A program made the position numbers and the translations under genes. DNA of 64,000 nucleotides, taken from Escherichia coli. GTDB lineage: Bacteria > Pseudomonadota > Gammaproteobacteria > Enterobacterales > Enterobacteriaceae. Within the stretch, counting starts at the first letter, position 1. Every line of letters begins with the position of its first letter. The notes below the pieces were generated by a model. It had not been told where the DNA came from. It did no database searches and was given only the letters and a program-made list of their open reading frames with translations. Shown here in pieces: positions 25,801 to 28,800 of this stretch. The DNA is taken from assembly GCF_044324875.1 (NCBI RefSeq), contig NZ_CP172185.1. One strand, given 5' to 3'.

Positions 25801-28800
25801 GCTGGGGTACACCATTGCCGTAATTATCCTTCACCTCAATATACAGACTGGTTGTCTCGCCTGCGGAGACTGTATCAAAAAGTGCATGTAGCAAGGTGAG
25901 ATGTGCTGTAGACGCATCCGCGTTGACATTAATTGATGTGCTAAGCGTGGAGCTACCATTTTCCAGACTGGCCTCAACGGTATCCGGTCTCGCTCCTGAT
26001 TCTATCGAGGAGCGGGTATTGGTATAAGTGACGGTAGCCTTACCCTGTTCGTTCGTCACGGCTTGACCGCCGTTCGTCATTTCGGCTGTCGCTGCGTTGC
26101 TGGTGAAGTTCACAGTCACACCTTTCACCGGAAAGCCATTATTATCAACGACTGTGGCCGTGATGACGCTGCCGGTGCTGTTCTGCGGGGTACCGGCGAT
26201 TATGCTGTCTGGGACAGGCGTCAACTCGATAATTTTTGCCGCCGCTGTGTCGCCAATAAAATGCACAGTTTTGTTGTCGCTGGCACCATTATTAGCCAGT
26301 GATGCAGTGACCGTCTGCTCACCAAAGGCAACGCCTGCGAGAGTGGTCTGCGCGATGCCAGACTCATTGGTATTACTCACTCCCGGGGTCAGGGTGAGTC
26401 CTGAAGAGGCTGAGCTGAATGTTACCGGAAGATTGTTCACCTCATTGTCGAACTGATCTTTAACCGTTGCAGTTAGCGTTGCGTTATCGACGCCATTACC
26501 TGTGATCTCATCTTTTGACATCTGCAGGACAACCTGAGCCGAGGTTTTGTCCGCCACAAACGTTACCGGCTGCGAATCACTGGTATTGTTATTACCCAGC
26601 GTTGCGGTAACCGTATGCGTGCCCGCTTTTTTACCTTTGAGCATGACATGCGCTTCCCCATTGGCCTGGGTGATGGCAATGCCGTTATTTTCGAGGGTAA
26701 AGTTTGCCGCCACGCCCTGTGGCATGGTGAAGTTCACCGTTATTCCCGCCACCGGATGATTCGACGGATCTTTCACCGTTGCCGTCAGCTGCACGCTGTC
26801 GCTGTTATTCGTCACCACCTGTTGAGCAGGGATGTTCAGGGTGACCTGCGCGTTGCTGGTATCGGGCGCAATATTGACTGTCGTCGTATAGCCATTGCCG
26901 TTAAGCAGTGTGGCTTCGACTGTATGAACACCCAAAACCGTGCCCTTAAGGGTAACTTCAGCAACACCACTGTCGTTAGTATTGCTTGTGCTCTGACTAA
27001 GTTGAGTATCTGCCGGGTTGGTACTGAAGGTGACCGGTAGATCTTTTACTACGTTATCAAAAGGATCTTTTACTGTTGCTGTCAGCGTCGTCTCATCCAC
27101 GCCATTCCCAATGATTTCCGCTTTCGATGTTTGCAGAACGACAACTGCGCTGTCCTTATCCGCCACGAATGTGACTGGTTGCGCATCGCTGGCATTATTG
27201 TTACCCAGCGTTGCGGTAACCGTATGCGTGCCCGCTTTTTTGCCTTTGAGGGTGACATGCGCTTCGCCATTGGCCTGAGTGATGGCAATGCCGTTATTTT
27301 CGAGGGTAAAGTTTGCCGCCACGCCCTGTGGCATGGTGAAGTTCACCGTTATTCCCGCCACCGGATGATTCGACGGATCTTTCACCGTTGCCGTCAGCTG
27401 CACGCTGTCGCTGTTATTCGTCACCACCTGTTGAGCAGGGATATTCAGCGTGACCTGCGCGTTGCTGGCATCGGGCGCAATATTGACTGTCTTCGTATCG
27501 TTGTTGCCGTTAGGCAGTGTGGCTTCGGCTGTATGAACACCCAAAACCGTGCCCTTAAGGGTAACTTCAGCAACACCACTGTCGTTAGTATTGCTCGTGC
27601 TCTGACTAAGTTGAGTATCAGCCGGGTTAGTACTGAAGGTGACCGGTAGATCTTTTACTACGTTATCAAAAGGATCTTTCACTGTTGCTGTCAGCGTCGT
27701 CTCATCCACGCCATTCCCAATGATTTCCGCTTTCGATGTTTGCAGAACGACAACCGCGTTGTCCTTATCCGCCACGAATGTGACTGGCTGTGCATCGCTG
27801 GCATTATTGTTACCCAGCGTTGCGGTAACCGTATGCGTACCCGCCTTTTTGCCTTTGAGGGTGACATGCGCTTCCCCATTGGCCTGAGTGATGGCAATAC
27901 CGTTATTTTCGAGGGTAAAGTTTGCCGCAACGTCCTGTGGCATGGTGAAGTTCACCGTTATTCCCGCCACCGGATGATTCGACGGATCTTTCACCGTTGC
28001 CGTCAGCTGCACGCTGTCGCTGTTATTCGTCACCACCTGTTGAGCAGGGATATTCAGCGTGACCTGCGCGTTGCTGGCATCGGGCGCAATATTGACTGTC
28101 TTCGTATCGTTGTTGCCGTTAGGCAGTGTGGCTTCGGCTGTATGAACACCCAAAACCGTGCCCTTAAGGGTAACTTCAGCAATACCGTTCTCATTAGTAT
28201 TACGCGCGTTCAGGCTCAGTTGTGTGTCTGCGGGGGAGGTGCTGAAGGCTACTGACAGATTTTTAACCACATTATCAAAAGGATCTTTCACTGTTGCTGT
28301 CAGCGTCGTCTCATCCACGCCATTCCCAATGATTTCCGCTTTCGATGTTTGCAGAACGACAACCGCTCTGTCTTTATCCGCCACAAACGCCATTGGCTGA
28401 GCATCGCTGACATTGCTGTTAGCCAGACGAGCAGTGATCATATGCGTGCCCGCTAACGTGCCGGTCAGGGAGGCGATGGCAATCCCGTTGCTATCCGTCA
28501 TGCCTTTTCCGCTGTTGCTAATCGAGAACTGACTTGCGACGTCGTTTGGCACAGAGAAAGTGATTTCTTTATCTTTTAGTGGGTTGCCATTTTTATCCTG
28601 CAAGGTTGCCGTCAGCTGTTGAGGCGCTGTGTCGGTGACGGTGATCTCGCCTGAGGGCACACGGAGGGTCAGGGCAGCAGTACTTTGATCACCGATAAAA
28701 TTCACCTGTTGATTAGCCTGGGAACCAGAGCTCACAGAGGCCGTAACCGTATAATCACCATTTTTCAAACTAGTCAGCGTGGCTGTGGCGATCCCGTCGT

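Follow-up and report, generated by a model that had tools for sequence, protein, structure and literature searches.

Unequal recombination as the probable source of stalk-length variation in YeeJ, an inverse autotransporter of Escherichia coli

The stalk of the E. coli surface protein YeeJ holds an intragenic tandem array, and it is highly probable that the copy number of this array has been changed several times by unequal homologous recombination. The array was recognized in a 64,000-nucleotide stretch of E. coli DNA (contig NZ_CP172185.1; hereafter the window), in which yeeJ carries three units of 609 bp. The gene has the features of other intragenic tandem repeats in adhesins: whole-domain units arranged head to tail, a copy number that varies between isolates, and hybrid units at the junctions. 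That unequal homologous recombination repeatedly changed the length of YeeJ is concluded from the hybrid units, from the differences in their breakpoints, and from a series of strains (LH50-c, E. coli C and 573) with almost the same flanks and different arrays.

The gene in the window (Table 1) is, judged by chromosomal position and nucleotide identity, the YeeJ orthologue of E. coli, and synteny, nucleotide identity and Pfam matches all bear out the initial annotation, which had called it a yeeJ-like adhesin. In five annotated genomes, that of MG1655 among them, the neighbours follow the K-12 order shiA, GT9 gene, yeeJ, tRNA-Asn, mtfA and tRNA-Ser, and the flank in the window matches amn, yeeN, shiA and the GT9 gene. 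Nucleotide identity to yeeJ of K-12 is 92% over 87% of the query, and to that of strain GF43 it is 97.3% over 100% of the query, i.e., the two whole genes are 2.7% diverged. The reading frame is intact. An upstream TTG at 31564 would give 2896 codons, while the ATG used by RefSeq gives 2871 aa, and the RefSeq CDS of GF43 has the same length and start.

Table 1. Features of yeeJ and its surroundings in the window.
Feature	Position	Strand	Remarks
yeeJ CDS	22874..31489	minus	2871 aa + stop; open-reading-frame list, translation, Pfam, synteny
C-terminal tip domain, ~130 aa	22877..23266	minus	allele type differs from K-12
Partial fourth repeat	26410..26560	minus	start of next Big_1 domain, older diverged A-like copy
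Unit 3, last	26561..27169	minus	domains A2 + B'; last-unit signature, ends ...NNNTSDSQPVT
Unit 2, hybrid	27170..27778	minus	5' ~205 nt last-unit-like; other ~400 nt first-unit-like
Unit 1, first in gene order	27779..28387	minus	Big_1 domains A1 + B; all diagnostic sites of first-unit type
Repeat similarity into preceding domain	28388..28430	minus	end of preceding Big_1 domain, older B-like copy
IAT_beta beta-barrel (inverse autotransporter)	30233..31060	minus	Pfam PF11924
tRNA-Asn	31802-31877		neighbour of yeeJ
tRNA-Ser	32869-32958		neighbour region of yeeJ

The domain order of the protein is that of an inverse autotransporter (type Ve secretion; intimin/invasin family). The PF11924 match (376.5 bits, cut-off 22.3; residues 154–429 of the 2881-aa translation starting at 31519) lies N-terminal to all Ig domains, and the passenger is made of tandem bacterial Ig-like domains of the Big_1 or invasin D3 type (Big_1 963.6 bits in 18 stretches, Invasin_D3 in 20 stretches, Invasin_D4 29.4 bits). 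By eye, the N-terminus, MGIKLRRLTAGICLVTQLAFPMAAAAQG, shows basic, hydrophobic and AxA parts in that order, as in a putative Sec signal peptide. The LysM profile scored 15.3 bits, under its cut-off of 20.9; the LysM domain of K-12 YeeJ has been shown to bind peptidoglycan (PMC5595812). Residues 1–1,000 are 96–100% identical to K-12 YeeJ in each block of 100 residues, and the tip is only 34–47% identical to the K-12/O157 type per bin of 100 columns, though homologous to the K-12 tip (BLASTP 46% identity, E = 1e-38). A Pfam search of the tip in the window gave no match, Intimin_C included, and the K-12 tip reaches 21.7 bits with Intimin_C, under the cut-off of 27. The initial annotation was correct in calling the K-12 product several hundred residues shorter. 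It has 2358 aa, and of the 513 aa by which YeeJ of the window exceeds it the repeat accounts for 505 and the divergent C-terminal part for 8.

The 609-bp tandem repeat was found where the initial annotation had placed it, in three copies lying head to tail at spacings of exactly 609 and 609. In codon and domain register, with boundaries at ‘FVADK’, the three full units span 26561–28387. Scanning the whole gene at different offsets revealed stretches of ≥80% identity solely at offsets 609 and 1218, and identity at offset 609 was high for first-copy starts from ~26410 to ~27820, which places the repeated tract at ~26410–28430. Tandem Repeats Finder reported no array in the window; its longest period is 500, hence below 609. 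Beyond the full units the similarity fades into older copies on both sides. The partial fourth repeat has ~70% nucleotide identity across ~150 nt, and its domain is 57% identical in amino acids to domain A of the unit. On the other side the similarity extends ~45 nt, into a domain that is 40% identical to domain B in ungapped comparison.

The units had been described as near-perfect or almost identical, which overstates their similarity. Their identities are 93.3% for units 1 and 2, 95.1% for units 2 and 3, and 90.0% for units 1 and 3 (41, 30 and 61 of the 609 nt mismatched, respectively), and the longest perfect tracts between them measure 249, 164 and 118 bp, the longest being common to units 2 and 1. 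Comparison with other strains revealed that the outer units are each closest to their positional counterparts: unit 1 to the first unit elsewhere (9 differences to that of GF43), and unit 3 to the last unit elsewhere (18 differences to unit 3 of GF43, 24 to unit 2 of 1CC and 29 to unit 2 of O157). Each unit of 609 bp, or 203 codons, yields two full-length Big_1 matches, including the hybrid unit 2, and domains A and B of one unit are 39% identical to each other. Because the unit consists of two complete Big_1 domains, gain or loss of a whole unit leaves the reading frame unchanged and makes the protein longer or shorter by two folded modules. Open reading frames on the plus strand inside the units were rejected as genes; they are antisense by-products that recur along with the repeat.

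The copy number of the array was compared among isolates, as the initial annotation had proposed, and it differs, with 0.5, 1, 2, 3 and possibly 4 units. For this census, 5,426 complete E. coli genomes were searched with one unit, and 2,910 of them match, at 4,193 places and with a maximum of 4 per genome. At least one full unit is present in 1,272 genomes, the great majority of which (~1,200 genomes) have the two-unit form, seen on all backgrounds examined; the mean of the census is 2.009 units. Three units were found in at least 28 genomes and one unit in at least 24, which together amount to a few percent of the genomes with full units, and one genome yields four unit matches. A further ~1,638 genomes have the form of K-12, a single chimeric domain (“0.5 unit”), with one place each and 55% coverage of the query. 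At the same chromosomal site the series thus runs from 3 units (the window and GF43) through 2 (O157 FORC_044 and 2017-02-1CC) and 1 (ES8) to 0.5 (K-12).

Within groups of related strains the copy number was uniform. This is the case across many assemblies for the K-12, E. coli C, O157:H7, O145 and ES8-type groups, and every O157, O55:H7 and O145 entry among the matches listed has 2 units. One virtually identical one-unit allele (100.0% as displayed) is carried by 21 genomes from varied hosts, and six three-unit genomes of the LH50-c type are likewise virtually identical to one another (100.0% as displayed). Perfect tracts reach 404 bp in three-unit arrays vs 53–85 bp in two-unit arrays, of which five alleles were measured.

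Copy number was read from the spans and numbers of places per record, since the coverage given by similarity searches is unusable for this purpose (overlapping pieces merge to 100%). A synthetic four-unit query covered by at least 80% at 1,199 places served for rough arithmetic only; two-unit genomes came out on top with it, and the genome with four matches was not picked out. A homologue search with the 820-aa repeat segment returned only fragments of up to 1,430 aa and Shigella ‘factor’ fragments, and was of no use for lengths. A degenerate pattern for QQVVTNNSDS of the B domain had no match in a set with one genome per species, in which the E. coli representative presumably has a truncated gene.

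The composition of the units points to how these arrays arose. At 45 diagnostic sites that separate the first unit (type 1) from the last (type 2), the middle unit of every three-unit allele reads 2...2|1...1, with a 5' part of the last-unit type and a 3' part of the first-unit type, and the single unit of every one-unit allele is the reciprocal hybrid, 1...1|2...2. Such hybrids are expected of unequal crossover, and they uphold the initial view that recombination at the repeat alters the length of the adhesin. The change of type falls between unit nt 205 and 511 in the window, GF43 and NCTC9038, and between 537 and 577 in s1190 and LH50-c. Since the breakpoints differ, and are spread over more than one allele background and both C-terminal families, the expanded arrays likely originated repeatedly and independently.

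The hybrids differ in how clean they are. Unit 2 of the window is of type 2 through unit nt 204 and of type 1 from 512 onward, and under the best single-breakpoint model (x = 205–250) it has 14 mismatches (2.3%) to a clean last/first hybrid. For NCTC9038, u3[:x]+u1[x:] reproduces the middle unit with 0 mismatches. The arrays of LH50-c, E. coli C and 573 comprise 3, 2 and 1 units, respectively, and the flanks in these strains, of 3102 nt and 3663 nt, differ by just 1–2 nt each; between LH50-c and E. coli C there are ~18 differences in 1827 nt of array vs 2 in 6765 nt of flanks. The flanks of most other allele pairs of unlike copy number are 1.5–3% different (e.g., 61 differences in 3102 nt between s1190 and WP8, and 86 between the window and WP8), from which it follows that many of the differences among genomes go back to old alleles and do not stem from fresh events. 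The suggestion of a recent expansion is not supported for the window. Recency is not demonstrable there: with 14 mismatches, and a hybrid type common to the 2.7%-diverged GF43, the array calls for an additional gene conversion, an old event, or an exchange of sequence among unlike alleles. The alleles of NCTC9038 and of the LH50-c/E. coli C/573 lineage, in contrast, do show recent events.

The form found in K-12 is best explained by the loss of sequence between a microhomology in domain A and its counterpart in domain B. Its chimeric domain is one full-length Big_1 match, and equally good breakpoints lie at unit nt 96–107, in frame, with the best fit to the one-unit allele (302/312 matches). 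A further in-register deletion at the 12-nt microhomology GTGAAAGATCCG, within ‘TATVKDP’, would leave K-12 with one intact chimeric Ig domain. We also considered the K-12 domain as the ancestor of A and B and rejected it, as A and B are 39% identical and the chimera is ~97% identical to the start of A and the end of B.

For the full units, we propose that copies pair out of register between sister chromosomes or at the replication fork, and that a crossover or template switch would then take place within a long tract of identity. Two-unit arrays would thereby give rise to three-unit and one-unit arrays, on several independent occasions; such exchanges would be expected to depend on RecA. An Ig domain is ~4 nm long in the invasin crystal structure. 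On that basis, each unit would add two Ig modules, or roughly 8 nm, to the rod that carries the putative lectin-like tip away from the outer membrane.

Other histories of the array have to be weighed against this one. We consider it unlikely that the length classes are old alleles, inherited separately and spread by horizontal replacement of the yeeJ region, with the repeat a relic that is inactive today. The divergence outside the array of most alleles of unlike copy number, the widespread virtually identical one-unit and LH50-c-type alleles and the 14 mismatches gathered by the hybrid unit of the window would agree with such a history. It does not, however, account for the near-identical flanks of LH50-c, E. 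coli C and 573, for the hybrid unit of NCTC9038 that is free of mutation, or for at least two breakpoints on different backgrounds and in both C-terminal families. That a long array was ancestral, and that the shorter forms are successive collapses with never an expansion, is quite improbable. Direct repeats generally lose copies by deletion more easily than they gain them by duplication, the K-12 form clearly arose by deletion, and the older A-like and B-like copies that flank the array make an ancient longer array conceivable; but the middle unit has exactly the hybrid structure predicted for a duplication, down to the perfect match in NCTC9038, the two-unit form predominates among genomes with full units and is present on all backgrounds examined, and a single ancestral three-unit array would not give three-unit alleles with different breakpoints.

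The remaining alternatives concern the rate of change and the reality of the third unit. A contingency locus, in which length is switched by a programmed mechanism at high frequency as a means of phase or antigenic variation, is very improbable, even though its usual ingredients are present (units that keep the frame, long tracts of identity and a protein exposed at the surface) and the array has diverged faster than the flanks between LH50-c and E. coli C. Variation within clones was not found in the groups compared: clones and laboratory lineages, including K-12, derivatives of E. coli C and O157:H7, are uniform over many independent assemblies, and the one- and three-unit forms are infrequent. 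Classical contingency loci, moreover, have short perfect repeats, whereas the units here are 609 bp long and 5–10% diverged. There is only the slightest chance that the third unit of the window is a miscounted repeat. Short reads can miscount a 1.8-kb array with identical tracts of up to 249 bases, and an mSphere paper states that tandem repeats can cause such genes to be misassembled. Against this, the units are distinguishable by 30–61 mismatches, the frame is intact, and the three-unit architecture with its hybrid pattern is also present in GF43 and at least 27 other complete genomes.

The length polymorphism of YeeJ was already known in kind and is extended here to a multi-allelic series. 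In the 2017 study of Martinez-Gil et al. (Sci Rep 7:11326; PMC5595812), the sections drawn on here describe two yeeJ length variants, those of MG1655 and UMN026, the latter 906 bp longer through three extra Big domains of repeated sequence; in the biofilm assays of that paper, the one published comparison of lengths, the two behaved alike. By length arithmetic, the UMN026 allele would have two units, as 906 bp matches the difference between the 0.5-unit K-12 allele and the two-unit alleles of our series (297 + 609 bp), in the same gene and position. To the two variants of those sections, our data add the third unit of the window (609 bp over the two-unit form), the alleles with a single unit and a genome with four matches, as well as the crossover evidence from hybrid units and the microhomology junction of K-12. 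The tip family of the window also differs from that of MG1655.

Intimin, invasin, FdeC and IatC/IatD share with YeeJ the N-terminal beta-barrel, the C-terminal Big_1 rod and, putatively, the lectin-like tip, and the number of Ig modules varies among inverse autotransporter homologues as it does in YeeJ. Near-identical Ig repeats in these proteins have been noted as a cause of length variation and misassembly (PMC6714894), and almost identical Ig domains occur in an invasin-like protein of Yersinia ruckeri (cited in PMC6714894). YeeJ differs from other inverse autotransporters in that two distinct domains, A and B, are repeated together instead of a single one, and that the units, at 90–95% identity, fall short of near identity. 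The alpha C and Rib proteins of group B streptococci and Aap/SasG of staphylococci consist of many near-perfect units, the number of which changes readily, even in the course of one infection. They resemble YeeJ in having long in-frame repeats of whole modules, with recombination altering the length of a surface fibre, whereas YeeJ has 0.5 to 3 (possibly 4) diverged units that change rarely on the scale of clones.

Overall, the YeeJ array is a real but ordinary adhesin length polymorphism of the kind expected of repeat-rich adhesins, and it introduces no new principle. It is possible, if rather doubtful, that stalk length is a tuned trait, recurrently gained and lost between 0.5 and 4 units in both tip families, with the reach of the tip selected to match the thickness of O-antigen or capsule and with three-unit arrays as an intrinsically less stable, transient ‘expanded’ state. 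A tuned stalk would account for the null biofilm result in the literature, as those assays were in one K-12 background. In practice, yeeJ falls into at least four length classes and not two, so that typing by presence and absence or by ‘variant’, whether with PCR or short reads, will misclassify alleles, and short-read assemblies can collapse the array. The natural stalks of 0.5 to 3 units may offer ready-made spacers for the YeeJ-based surface-display scaffolds described in papers of 2022–2026. If length does matter, the array would give E. coli a simple and reversible way to set how far the tip of the adhesin projects past LPS and capsule.

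The repeats lie in a long minus-strand gene that is yeeJ, and the gene assignment made in the initial annotation is borne out by domain architecture, neighbours and similarity. In Pfam searches the window protein has an IAT_beta domain at residues 154–429 (376.5 bits), and after this barrel come 18 Big_1 stretches, many Invasin_D3 matches and one Invasin_D4 match. The neighbours (shiA, a family-9 glycosyltransferase (GT9) gene, tRNA-Asn, mtfA and tRNA-Ser) are the same as those of K-12 yeeJ, and the annotated MG1655 gene matches the window gene with 92% identity across 87% of the length. 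The adjoining GT9 gene has an intact 350-aa frame in the window, whereas the annotations of K-12 MG1655, GF43, 2017-02-1CC and CAU16175 list its counterpart as a pseudogene with an internal stop or frameshift.

Features of the yeeJ region in the window
Feature	Coordinates	Strand	Remarks
Open frame holding the repeat	22874–31564	minus	2896 codons from TTG
yeeJ CDS start (ATG)	31489	minus	start by correspondence with RefSeq yeeJ annotations from other strains; 2871 aa
u1 (first unit in gene)	27779–28387	minus	FVADK boundaries
u2 (middle unit)	27170–27778	minus	FVADK boundaries
u3 (last unit)	26561–27169	minus	FVADK boundaries
Antisense ORFs	26615–27040, 27131–27649, 27740–28255	plus	141–172 aa
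GT9 gene	21242–22294	plus	
tRNA-Asn (GTT)	12235–12310, 14643–14718, 16467–16542, 31802–31877		
tRNA-Ser	32869–32958		
Integrase ORF of apparent prophage	33011–34036		
Exonuclease ORF of apparent prophage	34298–36751		

A repeat search detected three copies at intervals of 609 and 609 nt, and when all offsets from 30 to 3999 were scanned, windows of ≥80% identity were found at offsets 609 and 1218 only (TRF, with its period limit of 500, is blind to the array). The offset-609 identity profile is high from ~26410 to ~27820, so the repeated tract spans ~26410–28430; in protein register, FVADK opens every unit. The initial description of near-perfect 609-bp tandem repeats was accurate as to period, number and place but too strong on similarity, as the units are only 90.0–95.1% identical: 93.3% for u1-u2 (41 mismatches in 609 nt, longest perfect tract 249 bp), 95.1% for u2-u3 (30 mismatches, 164 bp) and 90.0% for u1-u3 (61 mismatches, 118 bp). 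A single unit comprises 203 codons and two complete Big_1 domains (Pfam), A and B, that share only 39% identity. Weak partial repeats occur at both ends of the array because it is preceded by an older B-like domain (40% identity to B) and followed by an older A-like one (57% identity to A). Antisense ORFs occur roughly once per unit, the last two starting exactly 609 nt apart; these were rejected as genes, since they seem to arise mechanically from an antisense reading frame of the repeat that happens to lack stops.

The yeeJ locus was retrieved from 12 complete genomes, and across these genomes and the window the copy number differs at one site.

Repeat units in yeeJ of the window and 12 complete genomes (yeeJ is frameshifted in 2017-02-1CC and NCTC9038; lengths apply to intact genes)
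Units	Strains	Protein length (aa)
3	window, GF43, 1190, LH50-c, NCTC9038	2863–2871
2	O157 FORC_044, E. coli C, WP8-S18-ESBL-07, CAU16175, 2017-02-1CC	2660–2668
1	ES8, 573	2465 / 2457
0.5 (one 104-aa domain)	K-12 MG1655	2358

In a census of 5,426 complete E. coli genomes with unit 2 as query, 2,910 had matches: 1,272 held at least one full unit, and ~1,638 had the K-12 form, seen as a single 55%-coverage match in two pieces. About 2,500 genomes had no unit, and the K-12 form is now the commonest among full-length forms. Matches totalled 4,193, which gives a mean of 2.009 units per full-unit genome. The maximum in one genome was 4, and the complete genome(s) concerned (at least one) could have either four units in one array or a second copy of the gene. 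Among the matches listed, at least 28 genomes had three units and at least 24 had one. A synthetic four-unit query found a place covering ≥80% of its length in 1,199 genomes, which should be the two-unit class; arithmetic from these summary counts, rather than a direct count, suggests about 30 genomes with one unit and about 40 with three.

Every unit was painted with 45 diagnostic sites, defined as the consistent differences between first and last units in two two-unit alleles (O157 and 2017-02-1CC). First units were type 1 throughout and last units type 2 throughout. The middle units of all three-unit alleles were type 2 at the 5' end and type 1 at the 3' end, and in both one-unit alleles the lone unit had the opposite arrangement, 5' type 1 and 3' type 2. 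These hybrids are the two reciprocal products that would be expected if unit 2 of one copy of a two-unit array paired with unit 1 of another, with exchange within the unit. The position of the switch varies among alleles: the window, GF43 and NCTC9038 change type between unit nt 205 and 511, and 1190 and LH50-c between nt 537 and 577; the NCTC9038 array has a different unit background as well. By these differences in switch point and background, at least three expansions were independent. Contraction likewise occurred at least twice, since the one-unit alleles, ES8 and 573, belong to different C-terminal families. The copy numbers and reciprocal hybrids are comparative support for the earlier proposal that the repeat is a recombination substrate altering adhesin length.

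In NCTC9038 the middle unit is reproduced without a single mismatch by u3[:x]+u1[x:], which marks a very recent expansion. LH50-c (three units), E. coli C (two) and 573 (one) show 1–2 nt differences in the 3102-nt 5' part of yeeJ and 1–2 nt in the 3663-nt 3' part, and thus represent one allele lineage with three copy numbers; within the array their differences are larger and in patchy blocks, which points to additional conversion between units. For the window, the initial suggestion of recent expansion was overstated. Its middle unit keeps 14 mismatches under the best single-breakpoint model, and the window's nearest relative, GF43, which is 2.7% diverged overall, carries a hybrid of the same type, so expansion here is not demonstrably recent. 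Perfect tracts reach up to 404 bp in three-unit arrays versus 53–85 bp in two-unit arrays, and in homologous recombination longer perfect tracts should make the three-unit array the less stable state.

The single K-12 domain consists of the first 35 residues of A joined to the last 69 of B, with the junction in a 12-nt identity (unit nt 96–107 of A, 393–404 of B) within the ‘TATVKDP’ strand. This chimera gives an end-to-end Big_1 match (73.6 bits), and its best fit is a one-unit allele (302/312 nt). The K-12 form is most readily accounted for by a short-homology in-register deletion, of 297 bp from a one-unit or 906 bp from a two-unit allele.

The sections of Martinez-Gil et al. 2017 (PMC5595812) drawn on here describe two yeeJ variants, MG1655 and UMN026, differing by a 906-bp fragment with three further Big domains predicted and “made up of a repeated section of sequence”; its authors saw no difference between the variants in biofilm assays, the only published test of length. 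Those 906 bp are the difference found here between the K-12 form and a two-unit allele. A later survey of the inverse autotransporters of E. coli (PMC6714894) added nothing on yeeJ length, and other literature naming yeeJ with tandem repeats did not address it. Relative to those sections and that survey, the new points, incremental ones, are the classes with one and three units (possibly also one with four), the signature of reciprocal hybrids, the repeated origins and the microhomology junction.

In the 3' part of yeeJ (22877–24970) the window allele belongs to a second family, common to GF43, ES8, WP8 and 1190; K-12, O157, LH50-c, E. coli C and 573 have the other. Compared with K-12/O157, the last ~700 aa are 63–84% identical and the tip domain (22877–23266) only 34–47% (46% by BLASTP); Intimin_C was not found in the window tip with Pfam. 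With so divergent a tip, the ligand might differ too.

The gene is often inactivated, by truncation to remnants, by IS3-family insertions (several genomes) and by frameshifts (two retrieved alleles). About 23 of 60 evenly spaced genome matches to yeeJ had only a ~2.46-kb remnant, a barrel fragment plus an Ig fragment; judged from this spread sample, many of the unit-less genomes carry it. The Yersinia high-pathogenicity island in RM9088 has yeeJ-derived pseudogenes at its borders, and the site is unoccupied in MG1655 (PMC10562709); this insertion site may be tied to the truncated remnants. The window has four tRNA-Asn (GTT) genes within 20 kb. What appears to be a lambdoid prophage (32869–37989 and beyond) adjoins tRNA-Ser; the site is empty in K-12, ES8 and 2017-02-1CC, where yodB/zinT follow directly. 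The segment 31799–36600, including tRNA-Asn, mtfA and tRNA-Ser, matches E. coli AR_0085 at 99.8% identity. Best identities among the 5,426 genomes were 98.4% for the conserved flank 17000–22800 (amn, yeeN, shiA, GT9) and 97.3% for yeeJ (22874–31564), so the window lineage is not closely represented in that collection.

Each unit puts two folded Ig modules into the passenger, between barrel and tip. With Ig domains ~4 nm long, as in the invasin structure, the rod would lengthen by roughly 8 nm per unit, and the tip of the window YeeJ would project about five domains beyond that of K-12. Copy number was uniform within clones; the array is not a fast phase-variable switch. Length variation of this kind is ordinary for an adhesin rich in repeats and has in part been published already.
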